A stretch of 64,000 nucleotides of DNA from Candidatus Nomurabacteria bacterium. Its GTDB lineage: Bacteria > Patescibacteriota > Minisyncoccia > Phycocordibacterales > UBA9973. The translations under genes were made by a program, and so were the position numbers. Numbering within the stretch: the first letter of the stretch is position 1; the number at the start of each line of letters is the position of its first letter. The stretch is taken from positions 301,684-365,683 of the forward strand of contig CP064973.1 in NCBI GenBank assembly GCA_016699365.1, given 5' to 3'. Shown here piece by piece: positions 853 to 45,676 of this stretch. Under the pieces are notes generated by a model. It saw only the letters and a program-made list of their open reading frames with translations. It searched no databases and was not told where the DNA came from.

Positions 853-864
853 AGATATTTCATA

Positions 865-2082: not shown

Positions 2083-2090
2083 TTATAATT

Positions 2091-3881: not shown

Positions 3882-3885
3882 ATAT

Positions 3886-4488: not shown

Positions 4489-4490
4489 AT

Positions 4491-15003: not shown

Positions 15004-15309
15004 ATGGATCAAAAATTACGTCAAACAATTATAAATGCATACAATCTCGGCTCTCTATCAGAAGATGAGCAAAATGATATTATCGAGCGAATAGGCTCAC
15101 TAATATTTCAAGGAATACTAATGAGAGTCATGGAGGATATGCCAGAGACTCTTCAATCAGAATTTGAAGAGATGTTAGATAAAGACGCATCTCCTGAAAT
15201 GATAATTGGCTTCTTGCGTGAAAATGTACGAGACTTTGAAAATATCGCAAAAGAAGAAGCTGAAAAATTTCAAAGAGAAAGTATGTCAGTGATGAGTCAG
15301 ATAGGATAA
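15004..15309 (+). CDS. Hypothetical small acidic helical protein (101 aa)
   Basis: Last gene of the 9802-15309 operon; followed by a terminator. Confidence 0.55.
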   Translation: MDQKLRQTIINAYNLGSLSEDEQNDIIERIGSLIFQGILMRVMEDMPETLQSEFEEMLDKDASPEMIIGFLRENVRDFENIAKEEAEKFQRESMSVMSQIG

Positions 15310-17701: not shown

Positions 17702-17704
17702 TAT

Positions 17705-18517
17705 ATGAAACACATTGCAAAAAAATCTTTAGGGCAAAATTTCTTGAACTCACCAGGGGCAATTTCTAAGATGGTAAGTGCTGCAGGTGCTAGAGAAAAA
17801 GATATTGTTTTGGAAATAGGTCCTGGTAAGGGAGTTTTAACTCGTGCTCTCTTGAATACAGCAGGCAAGGTTGTTGCTATTGAAAAAGATTATGAATTAG
17901 CCGCCTTCCTTCATGAGGAATTTAAAAAAGAGATAGATGAAGGCAGACTAGAAATCATAGAAGGTGATGCGCTAGATTTTGATCCGCAAAAAATGTCTTT
18001 TTATAAGAATTTTGAATATAAACTGATTGCCAATATTCCATATAATATAACTGGTGCAATTTTTGAAAAATTTTTGTCAGCAAAGTATCAACCATCTGTT
18101 TTAGTTCTACTTATTCAAGACGAGGTAGCAAAGAGAATAGTTGCTAAATCTAGTAAAGAAAGCATCTTGTCTATATCTATAAAAGCCTATGGAGATCCAG
18201 TTTATATACAGAAAGTTGTACGAGGCTCTTTTTTTCCGATTCCGGGAGTTGATTCAGCTATTTTGGCGGTAAATAATATTTCTCGTAATAATTTTGAAGA
18301 TTTAGAGCATGAAACTGTATTTTTTAGTCTACTTAAAATAGGTTTTTCTCATAAAAGGAAGAAATTGGCAGGAAATCTAAGGGATTATTCAAAAGACATA
18401 GAGTGGAGAACTATCTTAAGCTCTATTGGGGTTGATTCAGAAATTAGAGCTGAAGATTTGGATTTAAAAGATTGGATTTTGCTCGGTAAAACTATTTTAG
18501 ATATTAACAGGAGTTAG
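17705..18517 (+). CDS. rsmA: 16S rRNA (adenine1518/1519-N6)-dimethyltransferase
   Basis: Motifs LGQNFL and VLEIGPGKGVLT (SAM-binding), plus NIPYNIT. Confidence 0.85.
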   Translation: MKHIAKKSLGQNFLNSPGAISKMVSAAGAREKDIVLEIGPGKGVLTRALLNTAGKVVAIEKDYELAAFLHEEFKKEIDEGRLEIIEGDALDFDPQKMSFYKNFEYKLIANIPYNITGAIFEKFLSAKYQPSVLVLLIQDEVAKRIVAKSSKESILSISIKAYGDPVYIQKVVRGSFFPIPGVDSAILAVNNISRNNFEDLEHETVFFSLLKIGFSHKRKKLAGNLRDYSKDIEWRTILSSIGVDSEIRAEDLDLKDWILLGKTILDINRS

Positions 18518-18554: not shown

Positions 18555-19469
18555 ATGAATACTCAGTTTTCTAAGTACCTGCCTAGCAAGAATTTTCAAA
18601 AAGCCATATTTGCTATTGTATTAGGAATTATAATTTTATTCCTAGTATCTAAAATTCCAAGTTTTATAAAAAAACAAGAACCAAAGAAAGAGCCTTTTGC
18701 TGTTCTTGAAGTAGGGGAACTTGTTGAACAAGATGCCGATGGTGATGGTCTAAAAGATTGGGAAGAGCCTATGTGGGGTATGGATCCTGAAAATCGTGAT
18801 ACAAATGGCGACGGTGTGAGTGATGGAGAAGAAGTTTCTAGAATAAAGGCTTCCTTGGGATCAGGAGGTTTGCAAGACACAGAAGATATTGATTTGACTC
18901 AAACAGAGACTTTTAGCCAGCAATTGTTCTCTCTAATATCAGCACTTCAAGAAAATGGCGAACTAACAGACCAATCTGAGGAGAGTATTATTGCAGAGAT
19001 ATCTGCCTTTATTCAAGACAGTCCTGAAGGAACTGTTTATTATATGAAAGATATAAAAACAGTATCTGATACTAGCGTGAATGCTGTTGCATATATAAAG
19101 GCAGTCGATAGTGCGTTTGCAAAATATCCAATAGAGCCTTTGGACTTTATTCTTTTTGATACCGTGGTAACTACACCCAATACAAAATCAGTCAATTCTG
19201 AATTGAAAGCAGTTTCAGATAAATATAAATCATTGGCTGACACGCTACTTGCTACTCCAGTTGTTGTTGGTGAAAGTGCTGTACACTTGGCCCTGTTAAA
19301 TAGTATTGTTTCCGCAGCAGAAATGTTTGAAAATATTTCTAGATATGCAATAGATCCGATACCGGCACTTGCAAGTGCTTATCAGGCAGGTTCTATAGTA
19401 GATGCTATGCTCTCAAATCTAGAAACTTTGAACCAAGACATAATCGATGCAACTAGTACAAATAATTAG
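18555..19469 (+). CDS. Hypothetical N-terminally membrane-anchored protein with Ca-binding-like DxDxDG repeats
   Basis: N-terminal TM segment; DADGDGLKDWEE...DTNGDGVSDGEE (thrombospondin-type-3/EF-like); helical remainder. Confidence 0.55.
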   Translation: MNTQFSKYLPSKNFQKAIFAIVLGIIILFLVSKIPSFIKKQEPKKEPFAVLEVGELVEQDADGDGLKDWEEPMWGMDPENRDTNGDGVSDGEEVSRIKASLGSGGLQDTEDIDLTQTETFSQQLFSLISALQENGELTDQSEESIIAEISAFIQDSPEGTVYYMKDIKTVSDTSVNAVAYIKAVDSAFAKYPIEPLDFILFDTVVTTPNTKSVNSELKAVSDKYKSLADTLLATPVVVGESAVHLALLNSIVSAAEMFENISRYAIDPIPALASAYQAGSIVDAMLSNLETLNQDIIDATSTNN

Positions 19470-19496
19470 CCATAATGTTACAATTAAAATACTTTT

Positions 19497-21620
19497 ATGT
19501 CTTCAAAATATAAATTTCTAAAACCTATTGCCAAAGTATCTTTTGCTTTTGTGCTTATTTTTACACTTACCACTAGTCAAGCTAGTGCTACTGGCCTACC
19601 TACTGTTGACCTGGCAAATTTACCAGTCAATATAGGTAGTGCGATAACCTCTTCTCAGACAGCTGTAACCACAATAAAAGAATTCAGTGAGGGTATGTTA
19701 GCCAAGATGTTGAAGAAGATCGGCTCTCAAGTAGCTCTAAATATGACCCAGCAGGTTATAAACTGGGGTTCTACAGGTTTCAAGGGCAATCCATTCTTCG
19801 TACGTGATCAACAGAGTTTCTATAAAAGTATTGCAGATGAACAAGTTGAAGCTTTTGTGAACGAAATAAGCGCAGATGAGACTGCTTTTCCATATTCTAG
19901 AAATATATCTATGAATTTGATCACCGATCAGGTTTTGGGTAACAGTGGTGATTTTAAAAGTAAATTGAATTTTTCTCTCGATGAAACCATAGGGCCTAAT
20001 TGGGAAGATTTTACTGAAGATGATTTTAGTGTAGGAGGATGGGATGGTTGGATGGCATATACACAAAATGACGCAAACAATCCAGTAGGAGCATATTTGC
20101 GTTCAGCCGAAGAACTTGAAAACAGAGTAGATGCAGTAAAAAATACGACTCAGACAGAGCTTGCTCAAAGTGGGGGATTTTTGTCTATGAAAAAATGTGT
20201 TCAATACAAAGACGGAGTCGATGCATCAGGACTTGATCCGTTAGGAGAAGATATGGAAGAGTACCTGAGCAGTCTGTCTCTTTCTCTTGGAAGTGATATA
20301 GAGTTCAACGCAAGCGATGATTGTGCACGTTACGAAACAGTAACACCAGGTAAGCTTATTGCCGCACAATTACAACAGTCAGTAGAGGCACCTCTAACAA
20401 AAGCCATGAATGACTCCGCGACTGGTAATACAATCCTGGATTCAGTATCAAATCTTGCGGCTGGCCTTATAACACAAGGTATAACACAATTGATAGGAAA
20501 CATAGACACTACAGATCCAGAAGACCCAACAGCTGGTGGACCAGGAAATAACTCAGAATTTCAATCTAGTGGAGATGTATTTGTGTGGAATACAGGCGAT
20601 ACTGTAGATTTGGAGGCTACTCCAATATATGTAGGAGGGGTACTTACGGGTGTGCCTAGTGAATTGTTGCAAACATCTATCGATGATACTCAAGCTGAAC
20701 TTGACTTACTTATGTCTTCAAAAAATCTTATTAGAGATTTCCCTAAAAAAACAATGGAGCTTGATCAGTGTTTACCGGGTCCAGATTATAAATTCGCAAA
20801 TCGAATGCGTGAACAATACCTATTGGAATCAAAGAAGGTTCAAAATAAATCAGATAACGATACTGAAAATGGAGATGAAGCCCAAGATCAAATAAAATGT
20901 TTCGATGGGTTCATATCTCAACTTATATCTGATATAAAAATTGCACTTATCTCAGGAACTCTACGTGACGGTCCAGCGTTAGGTCAATCTCAAATCGCAA
21001 GTTGTCCTGGAGGTAGGCCTTGGGAAGATGTAAATTTTCCATACAAGAATATTCCTTCTGCGCCAATTATATATGATCAAGTAAATAGAATTTCTGGATA
21101 TAACGATGAAGCTGGAGCGCTTGATGCGAAGATTTCTTCTAAGATTAGAGCTTTGGCAATCCTGCAGGGCATAAAAGCAAATATTGTTACATATCCAAAT
21201 ACTGAGCTTCTAAATCCTCTAGATACTCAGTCTCCAGAAAACAAAGAACTAAAAGATAAGCTCGCTTCACAGTATGTTTCGATTGAATCTAAAATTGGAC
21301 GCCCAGATACAATTGCCGATGCTCTCGTAGAATACGATACATATGTAGATGAAGATTATGACATATTTAATGCTGCAAATCCGAGTTCTTTATTATCTAA
21401 ATGTCTTGCCGAAAGAACTGATTTCGCTAGTGCTCCGATGTACTCGGACGCTTGGCATACTATAGTAGATGATAATAGGCAAACTTTGTTCTGTGCTTGG
21501 GAAGATTCGTGGGGTAATTTTTATACACAGACCAGAGGTTACAATGATAATGATTTTGAATTTGAGTGTGATAGCTGGTATAGGGGAGGTATAGACGATT
21601 ATAAGGGTGATGCATTCTAA
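19497..21620 (+). CDS. Hypothetical secreted protein (707 aa, signal peptide)
   Basis: N-terminal signal peptide ending ..TTSQASA; no known motif. Confidence 0.6.
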   Translation: MSSKYKFLKPIAKVSFAFVLIFTLTTSQASATGLPTVDLANLPVNIGSAITSSQTAVTTIKEFSEGMLAKMLKKIGSQVALNMTQQVINWGSTGFKGNPFFVRDQQSFYKSIADEQVEAFVNEISADETAFPYSRNISMNLITDQVLGNSGDFKSKLNFSLDETIGPNWEDFTEDDFSVGGWDGWMAYTQNDANNPVGAYLRSAEELENRVDAVKNTTQTELAQSGGFLSMKKCVQYKDGVDASGLDPLGEDMEEYLSSLSLSLGSDIEFNASDDCARYETVTPGKLIAAQLQQSVEAPLTKAMNDSATGNTILDSVSNLAAGLITQGITQLIGNIDTTDPEDPTAGGPGNNSEFQSSGDVFVWNTGDTVDLEATPIYVGGVLTGVPSELLQTSIDDTQAELDLLMSSKNLIRDFPKKTMELDQCLPGPDYKFANRMREQYLLESKKVQNKSDNDTENGDEAQDQIKCFDGFISQLISDIKIALISGTLRDGPALGQSQIASCPGGRPWEDVNFPYKNIPSAPIIYDQVNRISGYNDEAGALDAKISSKIRALAILQGIKANIVTYPNTELLNPLDTQSPENKELKDKLASQYVSIESKIGRPDTIADALVEYDTYVDEDYDIFNAANPSSLLSKCLAERTDFASAPMYSDAWHTIVDDNRQTLFCAWEDSWGNFYTQTRGYNDNDFEFECDSWYRGGIDDYKGDAF

Positions 21621-21752
21621 AGTTTAAAAAAGAAAAATCTTCCAATAATATGGGGGATTTTTCTTTGGTAATTCACTTTTTTATTGTATTTACTATATAT
21701 TTGCATGGTACAATATACGTACAATTCTATTGTGCAAAAAATATCAAAAAGA

Positions 21753-24700
21753 ATGAAGAATATTTGCGCATCGACACTACTCTTTACTATAGTAATGAGC
21801 TCTTTTTCGTTTTTGTTTTTACCTAGAGTTGCTAAAGCAAATCTAAATGATAATTTCGAAGTTCCTACAATTGAAATTTCGTCAATTGGAGAGACCACAG
21901 CTACAATAAAATATACTCTAAAAGTCGGTGGTAACAATGGTAATATTGGACACGATATCTATAAAAACCAGAAGACAGTAGCAACACCTGGAGCAATCGC
22001 GGATGGAACTGAAGAGTTGGGTGACGCTAGTGATGGGGGAATTGAAGATAGAGTGGGAAATGTATTCGTTAAAGGTGCGGATGGAAACTCTAAATATGAA
22101 ATAATTTCAGGTAATTCAAATGACAATACTGGACCTTTTACTGATCCGGAAAATGGTGGTGCACTCGGATCGTTTGATGAGCTTGAGTGTAACGGATATG
22201 GTTGCGGAGTTTATCTAGATATCGCAGCTATTACGGCTAGTAATTTTGATAGTTTAGACAATAAAGAGGCTCCTAGAATGAGTCAGGAAGAAGTTTTGGC
22301 GGGAACTGAAGCTTCTCTTAGAGCGGGACGTCTAATACCAGGAGAAACTTTTGATCCAGAAATTGGTTTTTCATTTGTTATTATTCCAGACGTTTTTAAA
22401 TCTGAACAAACAGTTATTGTAACAATAACTGGTCTTACTGCTGATACACAATATTATGCATCTGGACGCTTGATGGAAGGAGGTGGAGGAGATGATTTGA
22501 GTGCATCAGATGATGATGAAGACAAGATAGTAGAGTTTAAGACTAAGCCTGTTGGTTCTGGTGAGGTGACTGGTGCCGCTGGTCAAACTACAGCATCAGC
22601 TACCGATGTGGGTGGTTCAGATAATGGTCCTGCTTGTTTCAAAATGGCCGCGGGTGTAGTGCCTTACTTGAGTATCCCTGGATGTTTTGCACAATTGCTC
22701 TACTATGTTTTCTACAAACCAACAGCATTTTTGGCTGGTCTTGCTGCAATGTTTTTGGATTGGTTTATGCATTTTTCTATACAGAGTGCTACCTATAGTG
22801 AATCTGAATTTATATCACAAGGCTGGTCACTTGTTCGTGATATATCAAACATAGTATTTATTTTTATACTTTTATATATAGCAATAGGAACTATACTCCG
22901 ACTACCTTCTGTTGATGCGAAAAAGATGATTGGTACGCTTGTTGTAGTGGCGCTTTTGATAAATTTCAGTTTATTTTTTACAAAGATAGTGGTTGATGCT
23001 TCCAATATTTTAGCGAACCTAATGTATAGCACTATATCAGTCGGAGGTGGAACAGGTGTGGGAGATGAGAAGACAATATCTGGCGCTTTGGTAAGTCAAT
23101 TCAACCCACAAACTATTTTCTCAAAAAGTGGAATAGATTCAGAAGGTGACATAGGTATGTATATCATTGTGACATTGATAGCTGTCGCTATGAACGTTCT
23201 TTTGATAATAATGTTCTTGAAGATAGGTATTTTATTTGTTGGTAGAGTCATATCTCTTATGGTTGCAATGATTTTCTCGCCACTCGCTTTTATATCCATG
23301 ATAGTTCCGGGTATGAAGTCTTGGAAAAATGTTGGTTGGACCAATTGGTCTAGTGAGCTGATAAAAACGGCATTTCTTGCTCCAGTATTTCTATTCTTCT
23401 TGTACTTGATAGTTTTATTCTTAGATTTAAAAACTCTTGCTATATCTGACACAGCTTCTGCTGGAGCAAATCTTCTATACGTCCTGCTTCCGTTTGCGAT
23501 TGTCTACACTTTACTCATGAAAGCACAGAAACTTGCTATAGATTTGTCTGGAGAGATTGGTCAGCAATCCATGGCTGTTATGAGTAAGGTGGGAGGTCTT
23601 GCTGTTGGAGCAGCTACAGGAGGAGCGGCTCTGGCGCTTCGTGGTACGGTTGGGGCCGCTGCCGCTCGTACTGCAGCAAACCCAGAGCTTCAAGCAGCCG
23701 CAGCTGCTGGAGACAAAGGGGCACAACGTAAACTTGCGCTTGCAAACTATGGTGCAGCAAGTAGTTTTGATTTCCGAAAGACAAAGGCTGGTACTGCGTT
23801 TGGTAAACAGACTGGATGGGATATGGACACAAAGGGTAGTGCTAAATTTGCACAAAATCTTGGAAACATGGTTGGTGGTGCAGGTAAATTTGATCTTTCT
23901 ACAGAAGGTGGAGCTAAGTCTGCAAATGAACGCAAGACAAAAGAGAAGTCAGACAAGGTAGAGACATATCTACTCAAGGGTTATGAAGCTAGTCAGCAAG
24001 ATAAAAAAGCAGGAGCTTGGAAAGCTGATCTTGAAAAAGCGCTTGAGCAAGAAAGAAAGAATAATCCAAATCTTGATGAGGTGCAGTTTAGAAAAGACTT
24101 TGAGAAGGGTAATACAACTACTACTTATGTGGATCCTACAACAGGTCAGACTGAAACAATTCGTGGTAGAGCAAAAGAAAAAACAGCAAAAGAAGTCAAT
24201 TCTGAAAGATTACACGATCAAGCAAATGAAGTTGAATTTGGAAATGGCTATACAGAGAAAAGAAATGTTGCTAAAGAGCAGGCTACACAAGCTGGTCAAA
24301 GATTTGATGAAGCTAAATGGAGAAAGGATAACAATATTGAGACTAGATCTGATATGTCTAAATCTGAAAAACAATTTACTGTGGATACTCGCAAAAAAGC
24401 AGGAGAAGAATCAAAACCTATTAGTGGAAAAGAGAGACAGAAGGCAGAAGGTCAGATTACTAGAGCCGCATATGAGCTTAAGAAAATTGATCAGCACTTG
24501 CAAGATATTGCAGATACTTGGAATGCAGACCCTGCAAATGCAGGAAATCCAATTCAGGCAAAAGATGTTTCATTTGATCATGTTGAATTCGCTATGAATG
24601 AAGGTCAGTCAAGTCTATCTATATACGAAGCTCAATTGAAAAAAGCCGAAAAAGATGTTGCTGATGGAACAATTACAGCGCAGCAGTACGCTCAAGTTAA

Positions 24701-24812
24701 ATCTCAGTATGATAAGACAAAAGGAGAAATTGCTTCTTATAAAACATTGTTTAATGACAAAGCTCAGCAGCAGAATGCTAAATCCGAGGCTGAAGAAAAA
24801 TTATCTAGTTAA
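21753..24812 (+). CDS. Large polytopic membrane protein with VirB6/TrbL-like topology (signal peptide, ~280-aa exodomain, at least 6 TM helices, long charged coiled-coil C-terminal tail)
   Basis: Start moved to the ATG at 21753 (signal peptide MKNICASTLLFTIVMSSFSFLFLPRVAKA); the track's 21684 is a TTG that overlaps the TGgTACAAT extended -10. TM cluster at residues ~320-620. Two genes upstream of VirB4. Confidence 0.4.
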   Translation: MKNICASTLLFTIVMSSFSFLFLPRVAKANLNDNFEVPTIEISSIGETTATIKYTLKVGGNNGNIGHDIYKNQKTVATPGAIADGTEELGDASDGGIEDRVGNVFVKGADGNSKYEIISGNSNDNTGPFTDPENGGALGSFDELECNGYGCGVYLDIAAITASNFDSLDNKEAPRMSQEEVLAGTEASLRAGRLIPGETFDPEIGFSFVIIPDVFKSEQTVIVTITGLTADTQYYASGRLMEGGGGDDLSASDDDEDKIVEFKTKPVGSGEVTGAAGQTTASATDVGGSDNGPACFKMAAGVVPYLSIPGCFAQLLYYVFYKPTAFLAGLAAMFLDWFMHFSIQSATYSESEFISQGWSLVRDISNIVFIFILLYIAIGTILRLPSVDAKKMIGTLVVVALLINFSLFFTKIVVDASNILANLMYSTISVGGGTGVGDEKTISGALVSQFNPQTIFSKSGIDSEGDIGMYIIVTLIAVAMNVLLIIMFLKIGILFVGRVISLMVAMIFSPLAFISMIVPGMKSWKNVGWTNWSSELIKTAFLAPVFLFFLYLIVLFLDLKTLAISDTASAGANLLYVLLPFAIVYTLLMKAQKLAIDLSGEIGQQSMAVMSKVGGLAVGAATGGAALALRGTVGAAAARTAANPELQAAAAAGDKGAQRKLALANYGAASSFDFRKTKAGTAFGKQTGWDMDTKGSAKFAQNLGNMVGGAGKFDLSTEGGAKSANERKTKEKSDKVETYLLKGYEASQQDKKAGAWKADLEKALEQERKNNPNLDEVQFRKDFEKGNTTTTYVDPTTGQTETIRGRAKEKTAKEVNSERLHDQANEVEFGNGYTEKRNVAKEQATQAGQRFDEAKWRKDNNIETRSDMSKSEKQFTVDTRKKAGEESKPISGKERQKAEGQITRAAYELKKIDQHLQDIADTWNADPANAGNPIQAKDVSFDHVEFAMNEGQSSLSIYEAQLKKAEKDVADGTITAQQYAQVKSQYDKTKGEIASYKTLFNDKAQQQNAKSEAEEKLSS

Positions 24813-24817
24813 AAAAT

Positions 24818-25714
24818 ATGAAATTTACAGTTGAACAAATAAATAAAGCCTTTGACTCTATCCCAGTAGCTACACGCAAGGCTATGAGTGTTACACCTGT
24901 CGATAAAGTTATGCAAGAGTTGGCTGCAACTCACCAAGTTTCGCTTGATAAAATATCTCAAATTTCTGGTCAAATAACTTTCGTCTTGATTGGTCTTGAA
25001 AAAGCAGGGGATTTCTATGATTCAATTAAGTTTCAAACTGGTCTATCAGATGATATTTTGATAAAACTTGTAGATGAAATAAACAAAAAAATATTTGTTC
25101 CATTTAGACAAGCAATGATTGCATTCTCTTATGAACCAGAAGAAGAGGTAGTAGAAAGTGAACCCGAGGCACCAAGCAATCCTTCGATCAAGTTGAATTT
25201 TCCAGGAACTCCAAAAGCACAAGAGCAAAATGATAGAGCAATTCTTCGTAGTACCGATATAGAGATAGATGAAGATCCAGGAGAGCAGGTTAGAGAGGCT
25301 CTAGAAGATGTAAGCGCAAGAAGTCTAGACAGAGACAAGCTTTTAAGAACACTAGAGAATCCTCCTAAAAGTGAAGGTTTAATAAAAATTCCAGAGGTTG
25401 TAAGACCGGCTGTTTCAGAGATTGGTACAAGTTTTAATAGAGAGAGTATAAAAGTTCCGACGAATATTGTTCCACCGCCTGTAAATTTTTCAGATAAAGT
25501 GGATACAGTACCTCGCCAAGAGAATGATATATCTCCAATACAAAAACTTGCTCAATCAGCAGGAGTTATTGGCACTCCGGAGGTTTCTGGGACTGGTATT
25601 GTAGGTAGCAAACTACAAGCTACTTTTAAAATTCCAAAAGAAGTTAGTAATTACACAGTCCCAGCCATAGGAGAAAAGAAAATTCAGAGTGATCCGTACA
25701 GAGAGCCGGTTTAA
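24818..25714 (+). CDS. Hypothetical acidic protein (298 aa)
   Basis: ORF inside the VirB4 cluster; no TM segment and no recognisable motif. Confidence 0.5.
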   Translation: MKFTVEQINKAFDSIPVATRKAMSVTPVDKVMQELAATHQVSLDKISQISGQITFVLIGLEKAGDFYDSIKFQTGLSDDILIKLVDEINKKIFVPFRQAMIAFSYEPEEEVVESEPEAPSNPSIKLNFPGTPKAQEQNDRAILRSTDIEIDEDPGEQVREALEDVSARSLDRDKLLRTLENPPKSEGLIKIPEVVRPAVSEIGTSFNRESIKVPTNIVPPPVNFSDKVDTVPRQENDISPIQKLAQSAGVIGTPEVSGTGIVGSKLQATFKIPKEVSNYTVPAIGEKKIQSDPYREPV

Positions 25715-25867
25715 AAAATTAGTAAAAATCCCCAAAGGGGATTTTTACTTTATAACCACATGCGTAGTATAGGTTGTGTATATAATAAAAAATCCCATTG
25801 ATTGTGATGGCATAGTATCTCTCTGTATAGTATCTAAAATCTTATAGAATTCTGATATAATACATAC

Positions 25868-26272
25868 ATGCGATTTAGCGTCCCTCAATTTATTGATATC
25901 GAAGATAAAATATTTGGACCATTTACCTTCAAGCAGTTTGTGTATTTAGCTGGAGGTGCTGGTATTTGTTTCATTGTATACAAGTTGCTACCTTTTTTCT
26001 TTGCGGTTATATTTATAGTTCCAATAGCAGGTCTCGCACTGGCTTTGACTTTTTACAAAGTTAACAACAAGCCTTTTATTGCAATACTCGAGTCTTATAT
26101 TAGATTTCTTATGCAGGGTAAGTTGTATATTTGGAAAAAAGATCCGAAGAAAAAAGAAATAAATAAGACAGAAGATGTACTTCCTGCTCCGATTGTTCCT
26201 AGATTATCAGAAAGTAGACTTAAGGATATATCCTGGAGTCTAGATGTTCTCGATGTAAACTCTAAAAAGTAA
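25868..26272 (+). CDS. Small two-TM membrane protein, VirB3/PrgI-like by size, topology and position
   Basis: 134 aa with two adjacent hydrophobic helices near the N-terminus; immediately upstream of the VirB4 ORFs, as is typical for VirB3. Confidence 0.4.
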   Translation: MRFSVPQFIDIEDKIFGPFTFKQFVYLAGGAGICFIVYKLLPFFFAVIFIVPIAGLALALTFYKVNNKPFIAILESYIRFLMQGKLYIWKKDPKKKEINKTEDVLPAPIVPRLSESRLKDISWSLDVLDVNSKK

Positions 26273-26294
26273 ACTATTTGGTATACTAAACTCT

Positions 26295-26939
26295 ATGGCA
26301 ATCAACGCACGCTCAACACAATCATTCGTACCGATCAAAGAAGTTCGGGATGGCGTTGTTGTACTTAAAGATGGTGGTTTGCGTGCTGTGATTATGGCAT
26401 CTTCTGTAAACCTATCGCTTAAGTCTAGTGATGAACAACAAGCTATAATTATGCAATTCCAAACCTTCTTGAATTCTTTGGAATTTTCGACTCAAATAAT
26501 TGTTCAATCTAGGAGATTGGACATAAAACCATACTTACTTACACTTGAGAATCGAATGAAGGATCAAGTCGAACCCCTACTTAAAGTTCAAACAAAAGAG
26601 TATATAGAATTTATAAGATCATTTACAGAACAGGTGAACATAATGACAAAGAACTTTTTTATAGTAGTACCTTATTCTGCAGCTCCATTGTCAAAGCAGG
26701 GTAGTATAACAAAGGCATTTTCCGATCTTACTGGTGCTGGAGATAAAGTTAGTCAAAAAAATGACGCACTATCTTTATTTGAAGAAAAAAGAACCCAGTT
26801 AGAGCAGCGTGTTGCAGTTATTCAACAGGGTCTTAATCGTTGTGGTGTGCGTAGTACAAAACTTGGGACAGAAGAAGTGATAGAACTTTTTTATAAAGTA
26901 TTTAATCCTGGTGAGACTGAACAAAATATAAAAATATAA
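26295..26939 (+). CDS. VirB4 N-terminal-domain-like protein (CagE/TrbE/VirB-type N-terminus). Either a separate ORF or the frameshifted 5' part of virB4.
   Basis: PIKEVRDGVVVLKDGGLRAVIMASSVNLSLKSSDEQQAIIMQFQTFLNSL matches the characteristic VirB4 N-terminus. Its stop overlaps the next ATG in another frame at an A-rich run. Confidence 0.45.
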   Translation: MAINARSTQSFVPIKEVRDGVVVLKDGGLRAVIMASSVNLSLKSSDEQQAIIMQFQTFLNSLEFSTQIIVQSRRLDIKPYLLTLENRMKDQVEPLLKVQTKEYIEFIRSFTEQVNIMTKNFFIVVPYSAAPLSKQGSITKAFSDLTGAGDKVSQKNDALSLFEEKRTQLEQRVAVIQQGLNRCGVRSTKLGTEEVIELFYKVFNPGETEQNIKI

Positions 26940-26941
26940 TT

Positions 26942-28768
26942 ATGGGAATTTTAGATAAAATTTTAGGTAAATCAAGTAAAAAAGCAGACGAACACCAAGT
27001 TTTGCCTGTTTTACCAGAGGAAATATATCAAGCGGCAACTCTAGAACTTCAGGATGTTATCGCGCCATCAGCACTACAAGTTGAGCCAAAGGCTTTGCAT
27101 TTGGGTGATAAAATAGCTCGTACTTTTTTTGTAATTTCTTATCCAAGATATCTTACTGATAACTGGTTTGCGCCAATCATCAACTTAGATAAAATATTTG
27201 ATGTTTCTTTTTTCATACACCCTATTGATACAGCTACAATATTGCGTCAATTTCAGAAAAAAGTTGCTGAGGTGCAAAGTCAGATAAATATGAGAGAGAG
27301 CCGTGGTCTTGTTCGTGACCCAATACTTGATACTGCGTACCGCGACCTAGAAAGTTTGCGTGATAGTTTGCAACAAGCCCAAGAAAAGATGTTTGATGTT
27401 GGTTTGTATATAACAATGTATGCCGACAATGAAGATGAGCTTTTCAAGTTGGAAAATGAAATAAAGTCTATCTTAGATGCCAAGCTAGTGTATCTAAAGC
27501 CAGCACTGTTTCAGCAGGAAGAAGGATTTAAGAGTGTAATTCCAATAGGTACAGATCTTCTTGGTGTACACCAGAAGCTTAATTCTGAACCTCTTTCTAG
27601 TATTTTCCCATTCGTTTCTTTTGACCTTACTTCTGATAAGGGTATTTTATATGGCGTAAATCGACACAATTCAAGCTTGGTTATATTCGACCGTTTCTCA
27701 CTTGAAAACTATAACTCTATTACTTTTGCAAAATCTGGTTCTGGTAAATCTTATGCCACAAAACTAGAGCTTATTCGTACTCTCATGTTCGACACAGAAG
27801 TGATTGTGATAGACCCAGAGCGTGAATATGAATACTTGGCTGAAGCGGTAGGTGGAAGATATTTCAATATTTCACTATCTAGTGATCACCACATCAATCC
27901 TTTTGATCTTCCTATACCTCGTGAAGATGAAACAGCTAGTGATGTGCTTCGCTCCAATACAATCAACTTGGTTGGGTTGTTTAGAATAATGCTCGGCGGC
28001 CTTACTCCAGAAGAAGATGCAATTATTGATCGTGCGATAACTGAGACATATGCTATCAAGGATATCACTGCAAATTCTGATTTCTCGAATATTGAACCAC
28101 CGCTTTTGTCTGACTTTGAAATGGTTTTATCAGGAATGGAGAATACCGAATCCGTTGTTCAGAAGTTGCAAAAGTACACTCGCGGTAGTTGGGCAGGTTT
28201 CTTAAATCAGCCTTCAAACGTTGATATCAATAAAAAATTCGTAGTGTTTTCAGTGCGTGATATGGAAGACGAACTCAAGCCTGTTGCGATGTATATTGTT
28301 ACTCACTACATTTGGAATGCAGTACGTAAAAATCTACGCAAAAGATTGCTTGTAGTGGACGAGGCATGGTGGATGATGAAAAGTGAAGACACAGCATCTT
28401 TCTTGTACTCAATTGCCAAGCGCGGAAGAAAATACTATCTAGGACTAATGACCATAACACAAGACGTGGGGGACTTCTTGAAAAGTCCGTACGGATTGCC
28501 GATCGTAACAAACTCTTCTATTCAATTGCTGTTGAAACAATCTCCTAGTTCTATAGATGTTCTTCAAAAGACTTTCAATTTAACAGATGAAGAAAAGTAT
28601 CTTCTTTTAGAATCAGGAGTCGGAGAGGGAATATTTTTTGCTGGATTAAAGCATGTCGCCATAAAGATTATTGCTTCATATACTGAAGATCAGATCATAA
28701 CATCTGATCCATCACAAGTATTGGCCATCCAGAAAGCTAAAAAGGATTTAGAAGAAGCGTCTAGTTAG
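26942..28768 (+). CDS. virB4: Type IV secretion / conjugal transfer ATPase, VirB4 family (Gram-positive PrgJ/TcpF-like)
   Basis: Walker A motif FAKSGSGKSYAT; Walker B motif LLVVDEAWWMM; motifs IAPSALQVEPKALHLGDKIARTFFVISYPRYL and C-terminal MTITQDVGDF. Confidence 0.8.
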   Translation: MGILDKILGKSSKKADEHQVLPVLPEEIYQAATLELQDVIAPSALQVEPKALHLGDKIARTFFVISYPRYLTDNWFAPIINLDKIFDVSFFIHPIDTATILRQFQKKVAEVQSQINMRESRGLVRDPILDTAYRDLESLRDSLQQAQEKMFDVGLYITMYADNEDELFKLENEIKSILDAKLVYLKPALFQQEEGFKSVIPIGTDLLGVHQKLNSEPLSSIFPFVSFDLTSDKGILYGVNRHNSSLVIFDRFSLENYNSITFAKSGSGKSYATKLELIRTLMFDTEVIVIDPEREYEYLAEAVGGRYFNISLSSDHHINPFDLPIPREDETASDVLRSNTINLVGLFRIMLGGLTPEEDAIIDRAITETYAIKDITANSDFSNIEPPLLSDFEMVLSGMENTESVVQKLQKYTRGSWAGFLNQPSNVDINKKFVVFSVRDMEDELKPVAMYIVTHYIWNAVRKNLRKRLLVVDEAWWMMKSEDTASFLYSIAKRGRKYYLGLMTITQDVGDFLKSPYGLPIVTNSSIQLLLKQSPSSIDVLQKTFNLTDEEKYLLLESGVGEGIFFAGLKHVAIKIIASYTEDQIITSDPSQVLAIQKAKKDLEEASS

Positions 28769-28863
28769 TCCTTGTATACAGTAGATGCTTATTTTATAAT
28801 AGTTTTAATGAATAAAAAGCGATATCGTCTACTTTACTCTATTTTTCAATCACAATTTTCTCT

Positions 28864-29805
28864 GTGATTATGTTCTCTGCACCTTTTAGCACAAGCGCAC
28901 TTGTTGGCAGTGATGTTATTGCAGAAATTACTCCAGAAATACCTGGCCCAAATGAACAAGTTACAATCAGGCTTACTAGTTATGCTATAGATTTGAATAG
29001 TTCACTAATTACTTGGAAGATTGGTGGTAAAACAGTTTTATCAAAAAACGGAGCCGTTTCCTATACTTTAAGTTCTGGTGCTAGTGGTTCTAGAACTACA
29101 GTTGAGGCAACTATTGTTTTTAGAGGTTCAACTTTAGTAAAGACAATATTGATTGAGCCTTCAACAATAGATCTTATATGGGAAGCTGTAGATTCATATA
29201 CACCTCCTTTTTATAAAGGTAAGGCACTACCTTCATCGGAAGCTGTTATAAAAATAGTAGGTATACCAGACATGAAATCTGGTGGAATAAAGCTTTCAAA
29301 AAATGACCTGACTTTCTCATGGGAGAGAAATTTTAGTGCGCTGCCAGTTTTTTCTGGATACGCAAAAGATTCTTTTATTTTTAAAACTAGTTATTTGAAT
29401 ACAACAGAAACAATATCTTTAAAAGCTAGCTCTATCAACGGTGGTCTTTCAGCTCAAAAAATCTCTACAATAAGAACCTCTTCACCTTTTATTGTTTTTT
29501 ATGAGTACAGTCCTCTTGCTGGAGTAAATTATAAAAAAAATCTTGGTGAATATTTTTCTCTAACTAAAGATGAGGCTACTATTGTAGCGGAGCCTTATTT
29601 CTTTTCTCCGAAAGATGCACTATCTAATGATCTAGATTATGAGTGGAAAATCAATGGCACAAGGATTGCAAACCAGTATCCTAAAAATACTCTTGTAGTT
29701 AGGAAACCTGCTGGTGCTAGTGGTAATGCATTTATTGATCTTTCAATTGAAAGTAAACCTAGGCTTTTTCAATCAGCAGATAAAACTTTAAATATTAATC
29801 TATAA
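28864..29805 (+). CDS. Hypothetical beta-rich secreted protein (313 aa)
   Basis: ORF in the cluster; Ser/Thr-rich, Ig-like character; no motif. Confidence 0.5.
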   Translation: MIMFSAPFSTSALVGSDVIAEITPEIPGPNEQVTIRLTSYAIDLNSSLITWKIGGKTVLSKNGAVSYTLSSGASGSRTTVEATIVFRGSTLVKTILIEPSTIDLIWEAVDSYTPPFYKGKALPSSEAVIKIVGIPDMKSGGIKLSKNDLTFSWERNFSALPVFSGYAKDSFIFKTSYLNTTETISLKASSINGGLSAQKISTIRTSSPFIVFYEYSPLAGVNYKKNLGEYFSLTKDEATIVAEPYFFSPKDALSNDLDYEWKINGTRIANQYPKNTLVVRKPAGASGNAFIDLSIESKPRLFQSADKTLNINL

Positions 29806-29809
29806 AACC

Positions 29810-31171
29810 ATGATCATTTTTAAAAAATATAAGATTGCGCTAGCTGTTATTATTTTCTTGGGCCTGATCGTATCCAAGAGTGTTTATGCTGCTGTAGATG
29901 TTTTTGTTGATGATGGAGGAACAGATCTTAATCCAACATCTTTTTCTTTTGAGGGAGATGTTGTTGGAGCGGGGACCGGATTTTCTATGATCCCTGTATG
30001 GGGTGTTACAGCTACATCTTTAACAAATAGTGCCCCAGTAATTACACCGCTTGCGGACGGTTCATTTAGTGGTTCTATAACAGGCCTTACTCCAAATACA
30101 ACTTACTACTATCAGTTTATAGATGCAGCTGACGGCACAATAAAGCTTACGATAGTAGATTCGTTTACTACTCCGCTTGTTTTTGCTGGTACGGATGGTG
30201 GTAAAGATGCCGTAGATTTGACCGGCTCTGGTTCAGGAACTTCAAATCCGAATTGTACAAATGGTGATGATTCATACTGTTTACTAGCTCCTATACCTGG
30301 TTTATCTGAAGTTAATCCGGCAAATACTGATCTTGGTGATTATCTGAATATAATTATAAAATTTGCGATTGGGTTTGCCGGTGCGCTTGCAGTTATCATG
30401 ATGGTGCTTGGAGGTATTCAATATATGTCTACAGATGCGCTGTCTGGAAAGAGCGAGGGGAGAGAGCGTATTACTTATGCTCTGGGAGGATTATTGTTAG
30501 CTCTAGCTAGTTACTTAATACTAAATACAATAAATCCAAATTTGGTTAATTTACATCTTGGAATCCAGGGTACAAACATACAAGTTGTTGAATCGCCGGA
30601 AGATATATTTGCTTTACAGGTTCAGTCTTTTGAATCAACAGGGCAAAATACTTTGGGTAATAAGTATTTGATGTTTGGTAATTATGCTGCCCCTCTACCT
30701 AGTGCTGGAGTGTCCGATTTTGTAAATACATACTTGAAAAATGGATATTCTCTTTCAGAAATAAAAATAAATACATCTACTAAAAAAGCAGAATTTGTAG
30801 CAAAAAATGGAGGAGCAACGAAGAGCGTTATTATAGATATAAACATAGGAGCAAACGGTGCTTCTGAGGTGGGGATGGGTGTGAGTGGAGATTTAAAAAC
30901 ACCAAAAGGTATATGGACTATACCTGCAAATGGTAGGAAGATTTCTGAGAACCAGGATTCTGCTATTTTAAATGGAGCTGGTGTAAACATGGGCGCAGCT
31001 TTTGTGAATACAGGTGCTACTTTGCCTAGCGGCACAGATCGAGGTATTGGTTTTCATGGACAGGCTAACAATAATCTAGGAAATACAGCTGGATGTATAA
31101 AGATGCGAAATGACGACATCTTGATCCTTTATCCTTATATGGTTTCTGGTGTTAAAGTAAATATATTCTAG
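29810..31171 (+). CDS. Secreted/membrane protein combining a VirB2/TrbC-like two-helix hydrophobic hairpin with a C-terminal L,D-transpeptidase (YkuD) catalytic domain
   Basis: Signal peptide. Hairpin KFAIGFAGALAVIMMVLGGIQYMS..YALGGLLLALASYLIL. C-terminus GIGFHGQANNNLGNTAGCIKMRNDDILILYPYMVSGVKVNI matches the YkuD motif HG..(S/T).GC(I/V)(R/K)M.N.D. Confidence 0.55.
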   Translation: MIIFKKYKIALAVIIFLGLIVSKSVYAAVDVFVDDGGTDLNPTSFSFEGDVVGAGTGFSMIPVWGVTATSLTNSAPVITPLADGSFSGSITGLTPNTTYYYQFIDAADGTIKLTIVDSFTTPLVFAGTDGGKDAVDLTGSGSGTSNPNCTNGDDSYCLLAPIPGLSEVNPANTDLGDYLNIIIKFAIGFAGALAVIMMVLGGIQYMSTDALSGKSEGRERITYALGGLLLALASYLILNTINPNLVNLHLGIQGTNIQVVESPEDIFALQVQSFESTGQNTLGNKYLMFGNYAAPLPSAGVSDFVNTYLKNGYSLSEIKINTSTKKAEFVAKNGGATKSVIIDINIGANGASEVGMGVSGDLKTPKGIWTIPANGRKISENQDSAILNGAGVNMGAAFVNTGATLPSGTDRGIGFHGQANNNLGNTAGCIKMRNDDILILYPYMVSGVKVNIF

Positions 31172-31172
31172 T

Positions 31173-32540
31173 ATGAATAAAAAAAGATTAATCATAATAG
31201 TTTCATTTATTGTAATCATTTTGATTGTCTTTTTATCTATTTTTTTGAAAAATAAAAATACAAATCCTGAAACAAGTGGAGATGGTTTTAGTTTGTCAGA
31301 CCTTTTTCCTTTCGGGTCTGTGACTGACAGAGGTGGTAGTTCGGACAATGATACAAACGACGATATTATTCCTGATGTTGTTACTGTGGATGAGAATGGG
31401 AATGTGATTATTCCACGCCTTAGACAGGTTTCTACTTTCCCTGTTTCTGGAGCAACTGTATTTAATACAAAAAGAACAAGAGTTGTTCCAATCCCTCCTC
31501 TACCAATCGAAGGTGACTCAGGAGGTGATCCTGTTGTTATAGCGCAGACTCCAACAGAAGAAATTGTAGTAGAAGATGCGACAGCTATCAGGTATATGGA
31601 ACAATCAACTGCTCATATATATGAGACTTATACTGATACATTGACTGAAACAAGAATTTCAAATACAACCATACCTAGGATATATGATACCTATTGGAAT
31701 TTAGACGGAGGGTCTGTAGTTTTTAGATATTTAGAAGATGGAACAAATAAGATACAAACATATCTTGCAACACTTTCTTCTCCGAGTGTTTTTGCGGAAG
31801 GGGGTAGTAGTCAAAATCCATCAGTTTTAAAAGATTTAAAGGGAAATTTTTTGGTGGAAGGAATTACAGATATATCGGTGTCACCAGACAAGACTAGGTT
31901 TTTTACTCTCGAGCCTGTTGTCGGGGGAGTTGTTGGTATAACAGAGGATTTTCTAGGTGGTAAAAAATCTCAAGTATTTGAATCATCTCTTTCTGAATGG
32001 TTGTCATTTTGGCCAAATGCGACAACTCTAACACTTACTACAAAACCTTCAGGCACACTTCCTGGGTACATGTATTCCGTAGATGTAAATAAAAAAAGTT
32101 TTGACAAAGTACTAGGAGGGATTGTTGGTTTAACTACAAAAATGAGCCCAGATGGTAAAAAAGTTTTATACAGCGCATCTGTTGCAAATGAGGTAAGACT
32201 TTATTCTTATGATTTAAATACAAAATCTACTACAGATCTGGGTATATCTACTCTTCCAGAGAAGTGTGTATGGTCAAAAGACAGCATAACTGTATATTGT
32301 GCTGTACCAGAAAGTTTCTTGTTGGGGGTATATCCTGATGTTTGGTATCAAGGACGTGTATCTTTTGAAGATACATTGTGGAGTATGAACCTCAGTACAA
32401 GTGTTTATTATGTATTAGTTGACCCTATAGAAACAATTAATATTCCTATTGATATGACAAACCTATTCTTGGACGGAAGTGAAAAATACATTTTTTTCAC
32501 CAATAAAAAAGACGGGATTCTCTGGAGTTATAGCATATAA
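31173..32540 (+). CDS. N-terminally membrane-anchored protein with PD40/TolB-like beta-propeller repeats
   Basis: N-terminal TM segment; repeats of the SPDKTRFF / SPDGKKVLYSA type. Confidence 0.45.
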   Translation: MNKKRLIIIVSFIVIILIVFLSIFLKNKNTNPETSGDGFSLSDLFPFGSVTDRGGSSDNDTNDDIIPDVVTVDENGNVIIPRLRQVSTFPVSGATVFNTKRTRVVPIPPLPIEGDSGGDPVVIAQTPTEEIVVEDATAIRYMEQSTAHIYETYTDTLTETRISNTTIPRIYDTYWNLDGGSVVFRYLEDGTNKIQTYLATLSSPSVFAEGGSSQNPSVLKDLKGNFLVEGITDISVSPDKTRFFTLEPVVGGVVGITEDFLGGKKSQVFESSLSEWLSFWPNATTLTLTTKPSGTLPGYMYSVDVNKKSFDKVLGGIVGLTTKMSPDGKKVLYSASVANEVRLYSYDLNTKSTTDLGISTLPEKCVWSKDSITVYCAVPESFLLGVYPDVWYQGRVSFEDTLWSMNLSTSVYYVLVDPIETINIPIDMTNLFLDGSEKYIFFTNKKDGILWSYSI

Positions 32541-32885: not shown

Positions 32886-32922
32886 TAAAAAATATCCCCC
32901 GCATTTGCGGGGGATTTAATTT
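32886..32922. terminator. Bidirectional Rho-independent terminator (ATCCCCCGC-ATTT-GCGGGGGAT)
   Basis: 9-bp GC-rich stem between two convergent genes; A and T tracts on either side. Confidence 0.7.
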
Positions 32923-43886: not shown

Positions 43887-43892
43887 GATAAA

Positions 43893-45614: not shown

Positions 45615-45676
45615 GTATTGGTTTTAAACATATTCAAGAGATATAATCTATTTTTTGAGATATAATAGATTTGTAG

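Follow-up and report, generated by a model that had tools for sequence, protein, structure and literature searches.

A resident T4SS-like gene cluster beside KsgA in a Nomurabacteria-like Patescibacteria genome, with no coupling protein or relaxase found in the surrounding window

Gene content of the locus

The window analysed here is a 64,000-nt stretch of a Nomurabacteria-like Patescibacteria MAG. Open reading frame calls place ten consecutive forward-strand genes (g1–g10) at 18555–32540, between housekeeping genes: KsgA (17705–18517) lies immediately to the left with UvrD further upstream, and a convergent HIT gene lies 3' of g10 with RecJ beyond, as an earlier reading made from the sequence alone had described. 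The GC content of the cluster (0.35–0.41) equals that of its flanks, and all genes are intact except g8, which carries a 1-nt frameshift. Five of the ten have T4SS identities (PrgI/VirB3, TrsD, VirB4, a VirB6-like protein, and a VirB2-like pilin joined to a YkuD domain). No family match above cutoff was obtained for g1 (304 aa), g2 (707 aa), g4 (298 aa), g8 (~332 aa) or g10 (455 aa), so that the earlier statement that most partner proteins lack a family applies to these five and not to the rest.

At its 3' end the cluster is bounded by a terminator-like bidirectional hairpin (32894..32915; 9 bp, 7 of them GC), which separates g10 from the convergent HIT gene. Within the cluster, g4 and prgI lie 153 nt apart, and this gap contains a forward-strand 13-bp, GC-cored hairpin (25721..25749) followed by a U-rich tract, with an MFE z-score of −3.5 for the region, and a consensus match to a promoter-like site (25802–25831); the hairpin may be an internal terminator or attenuator.

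A PrgI–TrsD–VirB4 core with a VirB6-fold protein

The VirB3-like protein PrgI (g5; 25868..26272, + strand, 134 aa) has two adjacent transmembrane (TM) helices at residues 24–58, matches the Pfam PrgI family above cutoff (39.2 bits, cutoff 27, E = 1e-9) and was recovered at 75 of 77 testable loci with a median identity of 52%. It is followed by a TrsD-like gene (g6; 26295..26939, + strand, 214 aa), which encodes a detached VirB4 N-terminal domain and stops 2 nt 5' of the virB4 ATG. This ORF had gone unnamed in the earlier gene list. Its NCBIfam matches are VirB4_plasma (positions 101–285, E = 3.8e-13) and TrsD (E = 8.7e-9), and it is present at all 78 loci (median identity 62%). When the undivided VirB4 of Clostridium perfringens was aligned to the window with tblastn, its residues 2–193 fell on 26280–26915 and its residues 205–754 on g7.

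The C-terminal ATPase part of VirB4 is g7 (26942..28768, + strand, 608 aa). It matches the NCBIfam family conju_CD1110 above cutoff (379 bits, cutoff 325, E = 3.8e-113), as well as Pfam P-loop_TraG (E = 4e-26) and the VirB4 structure 4ag5 in the PDB (E = 1.5e-41), and it has the Walker A (AKSGSGKSY, residues 263–271, nt 27728–27754) and Walker B (LLVVDEAW, residues 469–476, nt 28346–28369) motifs that had been read from the sequence. Identity of g7 is 76–86% across 79 other species-level genomes.

The VirB6-like protein g3 (21684..24812, + strand) is 1042 aa long as called from TTG 21684; the true start is probably ATG 21753, which gives 1019 aa. A signal peptide is followed by an extracellular region of ~300 aa, a five-TM helical domain (residues ~331–643, nt 22674–23612) and a K/E/A-rich tail of ~400 aa that is predicted to be cytoplasmic. 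Two structure-comparison methods assign the membrane domain to the TrwI/VirB6 fold, in agreement with the sequence-only reading, and weak Fn3-like matches to the extracellular region were found in two orthologues. The VirB4 ATPase, the detached TrsD, the PrgI anchor and this extended VirB6-fold protein make up a cytoplasmic-membrane core, with which five further envelope or secreted proteins are co-inherited.

A pilin hairpin fused to a cell-wall enzyme

The product of g9 (29810..31171, + strand, 453 aa) comprises a signal peptide, an Fn3-like ectodomain, a VirB2/T4SS_pilin two-TM hairpin (residues 174–245, nt 30329–30544) and a domain of the YkuD L,D-transpeptidase fold (residues 318–452) with the His...Cys motif HGQANNNLGNTAGCIKM (nt 31055–31105). 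The YkuD match exceeds the Pfam cutoff (37.5 bits, cutoff 23.4, E = 4.5e-9). In the window protein itself, Pfam T4SS_pilin is matched only at E = 0.008; the pilin segment shares 50–65% identity with PF18895 pilins that stand alone (E values as low as 4e-25), and a Pfam scan found the T4SS_pilin match in 58 of 71 family members, the window protein counted. The proposed pilin–transpeptidase fusion is thus borne out, with hairpin and enzyme co-occurring in one ORF. The C-terminal enzyme varies among the 71 members, with matches to NlpC/P60 (12), VanY (7), YkuD (5), SLT-type (5), Amidase_5 (3) and M15_4 (1). By its domain content, g9 is predicted to serve both as a VirB2-like part and in a VirB1-like role, the YkuD domain acting on peptidoglycan.

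Family-less partners

The first gene, g1 (18555..19469, + strand, 304 aa), encodes an N-terminal TM anchor (residues 17–35, by hydropathy), two thrombospondin-type-3-like Ca-binding repeats (residues 60–93, nt 18732–18833) and a helical C-terminal region. Its Pfam TSP3_bac match is below threshold (E = 0.076); in a pooled scan of 119 proteins (41 of g8, 41 of g10 and 37 of g1) eight matched TSP3_bac at E < 1e-3, and we infer that these belong to g1. By tblastn, g1 was detected at 35 of 51 testable loci, every time directly 3' of KsgA. The g2 protein (19497..21620, + strand, 707 aa) is secreted, acidic and mostly helical, with eight cysteines; its N-terminal GLPTVDLANL (residues 33–42) recalls the VirB5/TrbJ N-terminal motif, a likeness that is not significant.

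The soluble, acidic g4 (24818..25714, + strand, 298 aa) has no TM segment and consists of a conserved N-terminal domain of ~110 aa and a low-complexity region. An iterated HMM placed a family member, often tandemly duplicated, between VirB6 and PrgI at 61 of 61 loci, compared with eight loci by tblastn. A nearby DUF5663 ORF was compared with g4 and is unrelated.

The gene g8 (28808..29805, + strand, ~332 aa after frameshift correction) was called as a 313-aa ORF (28864–29805). The T-run at 28842–28846 has five residues here and six in the near-identical genome L001, and because of this 1-nt deletion, a probable assembly error, the called ORF lacks ATG 28808 and the hydrophobic N-terminus. The corrected protein begins with a hydrophobic segment, either an anchor or a signal, and continues into a well-conserved ectodomain, probably rich in beta structure, with the motifs PPFYKGKALP and SGYGKNSF; it occurs at 75 of 76 testable loci (median identity 35%), with no Pfam match in 41 family members and no PDB match by profile. 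The last gene, g10 (31173..32540, + strand, 455 aa), was found at 65 of 66 testable loci; its product consists of a TM anchor at the N-terminus (residues 6–24), a linker and a conserved C-terminal domain. One TolB-like propeller blade repeat (E = 6.8e-4) and PDB 7mx5 (E = 0.021) are both sub-threshold, and no Pfam match in 41 family members is attributable to g10. The labels 'Ig-like', given earlier to the 5'-truncated 313-aa ORF, and 'TolB-like' both correspond to sub-threshold matches only.

Conservation and residency

The cluster is fully collinear at 74 of 80 loci, and g1, g2, g4, g8 and g10 keep their synteny with VirB4 in almost all of the 79 other related Paceibacteria genomes. KsgA is the conserved left neighbour. 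To the right, most relatives have jag, yidC, rnpA, dnaA and dnaN; in the window genome, the cluster is separated from dnaA. The sequence-only reading was to be given up if VirB4 proved the sole T4SS member and its neighbours were not conserved; neither was found, because PrgI, TrsD, the VirB6 fold and the VirB2-like pilin accompany VirB4 and the neighbours are conserved at those 74 loci.

Its observation that mobility functions are missing was upheld: VirD4, relaxase and integrase families had no Pfam match in any of 40 ORFs scanned, and clostridial VirD4, relaxase and MobC queries had no tblastn match in the whole window. The window has no tRNA gene, the cluster is not flanked by att-like repeats, and neither a coupling protein (T4CP) nor a relaxase was found near VirB4 in the relatives. 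Either gene may lie outside the 64-kb window, on another part of the ~705-kb chromosome; in many Patescibacteria, VirD4-like genes lie far from virB4 (PMC12102498).

Relationship to known systems

The closest likeness is to Southlakia epibionticum SEML1_0006–0019, also a chromosomal cluster of a monoderm ultrasmall bacterium. Shared features are the order VirB6 ... PrgI, TrsD-like, VirB4 and cell-wall enzyme(s) (given in a supplementary table), a VirB2-like PF18895 pilin, and a locus without relaxase and T4CP. In S. epibionticum the pilins stand alone in an array of six, an NTF2-like protein (VirB8-like) is present, and peptidase and lysozyme are encoded by separate genes, whereas in the Paceibacteria form one pilin hairpin is joined to a peptidoglycan enzyme, the five lineage-specific partners (g1, g2, g4, g8 and g10) are present and no VirB8-like protein was recognised in the cluster. 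The system is the Patescibacteria-clade T4SS known since 2023–2025 (Wang et al. 2023, PMC10633639; Quinonero-Coronel et al. 2025, PMC12102498). A phylum-wide survey reported VirB4, TrsD, PrgI, VirB6 and VirB2-like genes located close to KsgA and dnaA, with relaxases seldom present (PMC12102498), and its Paceibacteria KsgA/oriC neighbourhood matches our cluster; separation from dnaA distinguishes the window genome.

Among conjugation systems, the cluster resembles MPF_FATA of the CD1110/CTn2 type (C. perfringens pSXP-169_2; pCF10 Prg/Pcf) in its CD1110-family VirB4 with PrgI immediately 5', in a membrane-anchored peptidoglycan hydrolase downstream, and in being monoderm without a VirB7/9/10 outer-membrane core. 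In the closest plasmid system, MobC, relaxase and VirD4 lie immediately 5' of PrgI–VirB4–hydrolase; our cluster lacks this DNA-processing module and T4CP. It differs further in its split TrsD and VirB4 (the C. perfringens plasmid protein is undivided, at 783 aa), in VirB4 identity of 31–36% and in the VirB2-like pilin domain, which is absent from the Gram-positive systems.

R388 Trw and Agrobacterium VirB (MPF_T) share the VirB3, VirB4, VirB6 and VirB2 functional set, including the TrwI/VirB6 fold of g3. In contrast, the cluster has no VirB7, VirB9, VirB10 or VirB11 and no significant VirB5 or VirB8, and structure comparison points to g3 as an 'extended' VirB6 that carries large added regions on the extracellular and cytoplasmic sides. 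The ComB system of Helicobacter pylori is likewise a chromosomal T4SS without coupling protein or relaxase, with ComEC in the same genome; it is, however, a diderm VirB2–4, 6–10 set, and no sequence-level membership of the cluster in it was found.

Origin and possible function

We consider it likely that the cluster is a resident, non-conjugative T4SS derived from monoderm MPF_FATA (CD1110/CTn2-like) conjugation machinery stripped of its DNA-processing functions, and the earlier core reading, a resident Gram-positive-type apparatus, holds. Under the proposed mechanism, VirB4/TrsD docked on PrgI and VirB6 would power the assembly of a short pilus-like or stalk structure made of the pilin-domain protein and the secreted or anchored g1, g2, g8 and g10, the fused enzyme would open the wall locally (its own or the host's), and macromolecules would move across the epibiont–host interface without a coupling protein; the roles of g1, g2, g4, g8 and g10 are suggested by synteny and topology. 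T4CP-less precedents are the Ptl, Brucella VirB and ComB systems. In S. epibionticum, the one Saccharimonadia species with essentiality data, epibiotic growth requires this same architecture (PMC10633639; PMC12857230). We lean slightly towards a role in host contact, as an exporter or conduit, that would be essential to episymbiotic life.

ComB-like or Ced-like import of host DNA, nucleotides or other macromolecules, possibly with ComEC, is a possible but doubtful alternative. The missing T4CP and relaxase, as in ComB, would fit it, as would the lack of nucleotide synthesis in Patescibacteria, and the idea has been proposed outright (PMC11665869, PMC12102498). VirB4 also has a weak likeness to CedB (E = 3.8e-8), but at 32 bits it falls far under the 700-bit cutoff. 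The argument previously drawn from ComEC and type IV pilus genes in the same 64-kb window does not generalise: of the 80 loci, this linkage is seen in the near-identical L001 only, and in 0 of the other 79 relatives. Moreover, deletion of comEC in S. epibionticum abolishes competence but not viability, whereas the T4SS is essential (PMC10633639, PMC12857230); what makes the T4SS essential therefore does not act through ComEC. None of the cluster's components was recognised as DNA-binding or as a nuclease, and uptake by the cluster is hypothetical.

Rather improbable is a surface pilus or adhesion organelle only, in which a VirB2-like filament or stalk attaches to the host with zero translocation. 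VirB4 is the pilus-biogenesis ATPase of canonical systems, the pilin domain recurs across the g9 family, no substrate receptor (T4CP) was found, and the extracellular partners evolve fast (25–42% identity, compared with 81% for VirB4), as expected of host-recognition parts. However, canonical VirB2 polymerisation is difficult to picture for a hairpin placed between ectodomain and enzyme in a multidomain protein of 453 aa, the cluster has no stand-alone pilin gene (in contrast to the Saccharimonadia arrays), and a type IV pilus system encoded separately in the window already provides for adhesion and motility.

Horizontal acquisition of the cluster as an integrated conjugative element, whether whole or as a decaying remnant, is effectively refuted: although VirB4 falls in the CD1110 conjugative family and its nearest non-patescibacterial homologues are carried by plasmids of Firmicutes and Actinobacteria, the window yielded no integrase, relaxase, T4CP, tRNA or att repeat, composition matches the flanks, gene order and the KsgA junction are common to dozens of species, the genes are intact save one probable assembly frameshift, and VirB4 shares no more than 36% identity with its plasmid counterparts and is conserved above the flanking housekeeping genes.

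The finding is real and not new, contrary to the novelty implied earlier: earlier publications already cover the system, its relaxase-less state and lack of coupling protein, the KsgA/oriC neighbourhood and the idea of ComB-like import (PMC10633639, PMC11665869, PMC12102498, PMC12857230). Possibly new in detail are the VirB4 identity of ~81% between species, above that of the flanking housekeeping genes (medians across relatives: VirB4 81%, UvrD 55%, KsgA 48%), and the retention of the pilin hairpin in g9 orthologues while the peptidoglycan enzyme is swapped (NlpC/P60, VanY, YkuD, SLT).

Organization and conservation of the locus

The locus is a genuine, well-delimited and strongly conserved T4SS cluster of a type that has already been described. 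Its ten consecutive plus-strand open reading frames (ORFs; g1 to g10, 18555–32540) are separated by gaps of 1–153 nt and, as the sequence-only reading had it, lie among housekeeping genes: a UvrD helicase gene and then KsgA (17705–18517) on the left, and on the right a HIT-family gene, convergent to the cluster, followed by RecJ. The GC content of the cluster (0.35–0.41) is the same as that of the remainder of the window.

Taking one genome per species, we obtained 80 VirB4-bearing loci; the source genomes are all Patescibacteria MAGs carrying the label Nomurabacteria, Paceibacterota or Parcubacteria. Searches by tblastn with each window protein recovered an identical gene order in 74 of the 80, bearing out the expectation that the genes around VirB4 homologues would be conserved. 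Leaving out one locus that is near-identical to the window (L001), and counting only loci long enough to be testable, the VirB6-like g3 was present in 57 of 57, TrsD (g6) in 78 of 78, PrgI (g5) in 75 of 77, g8 in 75 of 76, g9 in 67 of 69 and g10 in 65 of 66, with lower counts for g2 (41 of 52) and g1 (35 of 51). An iterated hidden Markov model recovered the poorly conserved g4 in 61 of 61 loci, each time with VirB6 and PrgI on either side. In a few relatives gene order appears to depart locally from that of the window: prgI and trsD look inverted in L012 (8861–9990), and g8, g9 and g10 look permuted in L004, L033 and L059.

Across species representatives, median identity is 81% for VirB4, 62% for TrsD and 52% for PrgI, compared with 55% and 48% for the flanking housekeeping proteins UvrD and KsgA, and falls to 27–42% for the exposed proteins g1, g2, g3, g8, g9 and g10. 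VirB4 is thus better conserved than the adjoining housekeeping genes. This steep gradient is consistent with an essential motor joined to host-facing parts that evolve quickly, and it may go beyond published descriptions.

KsgA is the conserved left neighbour (junction found in 31 of 51 loci). Past g10, the next 0–7 kb in most relatives (45–59 of 65 examined) contain jag(−), yidC(−), rnpA(−), dnaA(+) and dnaN(+), so the cluster abuts oriC in these genomes, in agreement with the published origin proximity. The window and L001 instead have HIT, RecJ, RNase H and ComEC genes after the cluster, an arrangement that indicates a lineage-specific rearrangement of the right junction.

A VirB4, TrsD, PrgI and VirB6 core

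The 608-aa g7 matches the CD1110 conjugal-transfer family of VirB4 (379 bits; cutoff, 325), with Walker A at residues 263–271 and Walker B at residues 469–476, and the nearest solved structure is that of Thermoanaerobacter VirB4 (E = 1.5 × 10−41). It is 76–99% identical to the VirB4 proteins of the 80 Patescibacteria genomes and at most 36% identical to any plasmid VirB4; judged by family score and pairwise identities, g7 appears to be a member of the Patescibacteria clade of VirB4 that is nested in MPF_FATA. Directly upstream of virB4, the 214-aa g6 corresponds to the N-terminal domain of VirB4, detached as TrsD. Its matches are to positions 101–285 of a mycoplasma-type model of full-length VirB4 and to the TrsD model, the latter at 35.5 bits and so under the 200-bit cutoff of that model; in the undivided 783-aa VirB4 of a Clostridium perfringens plasmid, residues 2–193 align to g6 and residues 205–754 to g7. 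The 134-aa g5 matches the Pfam PrgI/VirB3 family (39.2 bits; cutoff, 27).

The 1,042-aa g3 has no sequence family, even with a 43-member profile: the 43 family members share no consistent Pfam family, and the profile finds nothing significant among PDB sequences. One homologue just misses the TrbL threshold (25.4 versus 25.9 bits), and a PF19590 label that was precomputed on three homologues was not reproduced. An AlphaFold2 model of the membrane domain, built from 106 sequences (pLDDT, 82.5), was compared with PDB entries using Foldseek; the top seven matches are all R388 stalk entries that contain TrwI/VirB6 (best E = 5 × 10−4). With a signal peptide, an ectodomain of about 300 aa, five transmembrane (TM) helices and a charged tail of about 400 aa, g3 is, by its modelled fold, an ‘extended VirB6’.

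TrsD thus adjoins virB4, with PrgI/VirB3 and VirB6 nearby. The VirB4 ATPase, VirB3-like and VirB6-like assignments of the sequence-only reading all stood, and the 214-aa ORF that it had left unnamed is now identified. Since further T4SS-family members are present and the genes around VirB4 are conserved, VirB4 is clearly not an isolated T4SS gene in unrelated surroundings; the components can be identified and are inherited together.

Pilin hairpins fused to exchangeable enzymes

The 453-aa g9 had been read as a fusion of a pilin-like domain with an L,D-transpeptidase, and both parts were recovered. Its C terminus scores 37.5 bits as a YkuD domain (cutoff, 23.4) and retains an intact His...Cys catalytic motif, and its central two-TM hairpin is a VirB2-type pilin domain. 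In the window copy, the hairpin is below the threshold of Pfam T4SS_pilin (16.6 versus 26.6 bits, E = 0.008); it is 50–65% identical to stand-alone PF18895 pilins (E down to 4 × 10−25). A VirB2-like (PF18895/PF04956) pilin is therefore present near virB4, built into a larger protein instead of encoded as a free pilin.

The hairpin was matched in 58 of the 71 g9 family members scanned (including the window protein). The fused C-terminal enzyme varies by species, with NlpC/P60 (12), VanY (7), YkuD (5), SLT-type (5), Amidase_5 (3) and M15 (1) domains, and we verified that hairpin and enzyme co-occur in single ORFs. The peptidoglycan-active domain, fused to the TM hairpin, lies at a position equivalent to that of the membrane-anchored hydrolase of conjugative MPF_FATA systems and is at most a candidate for this VirB1 role; YkuD is a transpeptidase fold and not SLT or CHAP. 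PrgK and CwlT of Gram-positive T4SSs appear analogous as TM-anchored multidomain hydrolases; the anchor of g9 differs in being a VirB2-like hairpin. Such fusions are not mentioned in the survey of Patescibacteria T4SSs by Quinonero-Coronel et al. 2025 (PMC12102498), and a pilin hairpin with an enzyme swapped between species may go beyond published descriptions.

Conserved partners without a family

No family match was found for g1, g2, g4, g8 or g10. Among 119 pooled members of the g8, g10 and g1 families, E values below 1 × 10−3 were obtained only for TSP3 (8), PG_binding_1 (4) and gp37_C (1); the g2, g8 and g10 family profiles found nothing significant among PDB sequences, and 43 members of the g2 family share no consistent Pfam family. 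The N-terminal region of g2 gives three sub-significant signals of a VirB5/TrbJ-like motif, with a low-confidence model. No sequence match to a VirB8-like (PrgL/TraM, NTF2 fold) component was obtained. Kinship of g4 with the DUF5663 ORF at 15004 was considered and rejected, as the two are not related.

These partners are a source of candidate new components. It is possible, although we would put it somewhat short of an even chance, that they and g9 represent an undescribed extracellular half of the system, in which a VirB2 hairpin is permanently fused to a swappable NlpC/P60, VanY, YkuD, SLT or amidase cassette, and the four or five co-inherited proteins (g1, g2, g8, g10 and the cytoplasmic g4) are bona fide T4SS structural components. 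This would be a wall-spanning device that cuts the host wall, with the enzyme swap tracking host wall chemistry.

Published systems and possible functions

Patescibacteria, which draw resources from their hosts, account for much of bacterial diversity. Their T4SS is essential in the single species tested. In that species, Southlakia epibionticum, epibiotic growth requires a T4SS that is unusual and Gram-positive-like, has pilins and lacks recognizable coupling or relaxase proteins, and the published table gives the gene order as VirB6, NTF2-like, large protein, PrgI, TrsD-like, VirB4 and hydrolases (Wang et al. 2023, PMC10633639). In a survey of 3,035 genomes, Patescibacteria VirB4 proteins formed a monophyletic clade inside MPF_FATA; TrsD, PrgI/VirB3, VirB6 and VirB2-like genes were widespread, relaxases were rare and, in Paceibacteria, KsgA and dnaA were close by. 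Its authors proposed that DNA or other macromolecules of the host are imported (PMC12102498). A 2024 perspective (PMC11665869) and a 2025 review (PMC12857230) call the function unknown and weigh effector delivery against ComB-like uptake. The interpretation offered by the sequence-only reading agrees with this literature; its novelty falls away, since the conclusions were already published. The locus is not a new kind of system; it adds an example from Paceibacteria, clean and compact, with each cluster gene delimited, and its uncharacterized conserved partners, modular pilin–enzyme fusion and unusually conserved VirB4 are targets for structural and genetic work.

We infer that VirB4 and TrsD would dock on PrgI as well as a VirB6 platform and power the building of a stalk or pilus-like structure outside the cell, in which the pilin-domain protein would be joined by anchored or secreted partners. 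The enzyme fused in g9 would remodel peptidoglycan locally, and transport across the epibiont–host interface would proceed without a coupling protein.

A dedicated import role is the foremost alternative. The type IV pilus genes (PilB, PilC and pilin; 43–5969) and split ComEC that had been taken as a functional hint are indeed in the window. Between the ComEC gene with Competence and DUF4131 domains (36873–38363) and the separate metallo-beta-lactamase-domain gene (40178–41038) lie genes for a BD-FAE esterase and, on the minus strand, a superoxide dismutase, so the split is not a simple frameshift. However, L001 alone among the 80 loci has ComEC within 10 kb of the cluster, and PilC is near the cluster in only two. 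Given a genome of about 0.7 Mb and a linkage that is not conserved, we regard the proximity as incidental and reject it as meaningful; the genomic coupling to ComEC-dependent transformation that marks a ComB-type system is lacking. Nor does the locus have the CedB-type ATPase with CedA or CedA1/A2 of archaeal Ced DNA import: CedB scores 32.4 bits against g7 (cutoff, 700), and no CedA-like match was found. We consider dedicated import unlikely. Pure adhesion, or a pilus that serves nothing else, seems less likely still; we lean slightly to an export or conduit role, which takes the remaining weight.

A conjugative element or its remnant can be dismissed: among the 40 window ORFs scanned there are no coupling protein, relaxase or integrase families (including T4SS-DNA_transf, TraG and FtsK-type coupling proteins), as had been claimed, and the window has no tRNA genes and no att-like flanking repeats, only chance AT-rich ones. 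The closest plasmid system supplied clostridial queries for VirD4 (CD1115), relaxase and MobC, and tblastn with these was negative in the 64-kb window and in all 80 loci. In the C. perfringens plasmid, MobC, relaxase and VirD4 lie directly upstream of the PrgI–VirB4–SLT hydrolase block, whereas the window cluster is without them. The 64-kb window thus holds no relaxase with oriT, VirD4/TcpA, integration module or plasmid replicon, and the window and the 80 loci present a locus free of relaxase and coupling protein in a chromosomal housekeeping context.

Transcription, assembly and other window genes

Just one intergenic gap is sizeable. It separates g4 from prgI and contains a strong hairpin of 13 bp followed by a U-rich tail (25721–25749), along with a promoter-like site (25802–25831), so the cluster may be split into two transcription units. 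The promoter scan gave 53 sites versus 58 expected from shuffles and was thus no better than shuffles. Rfam families have no match across 15000–36000.

A T-run in g8 (28842–28846) is T5 in the window and T6 in L001 (window 28808–28870; L001 11868–11930), and T5 puts the N-terminal signal or anchor out of frame with the rest of the ORF; this frameshift is probably a homopolymer assembly error. In the window, RecJ is divided between a 106-aa and a 396-aa ORF (33421–34976); in L001 it is a single intact 563-aa ORF (16316–18007). As the second frameshift within 6 kb, it suggests indel errors in the assembly of the window.

Upstream of the DUF5663 gene, two ORFs (9802–11616, 604 aa; 11644–14982, 1,112 aa) have no Pfam family and are not conserved beside the T4SS in relatives. 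After an M50 protease gene, three large surface-type proteins are encoded at 41985–48889, one with a CarboxypepD_reg domain and two with Peptidase_S74 (endosialidase-chaperone) domains; these tail-fibre-like proteins may be adhesins.
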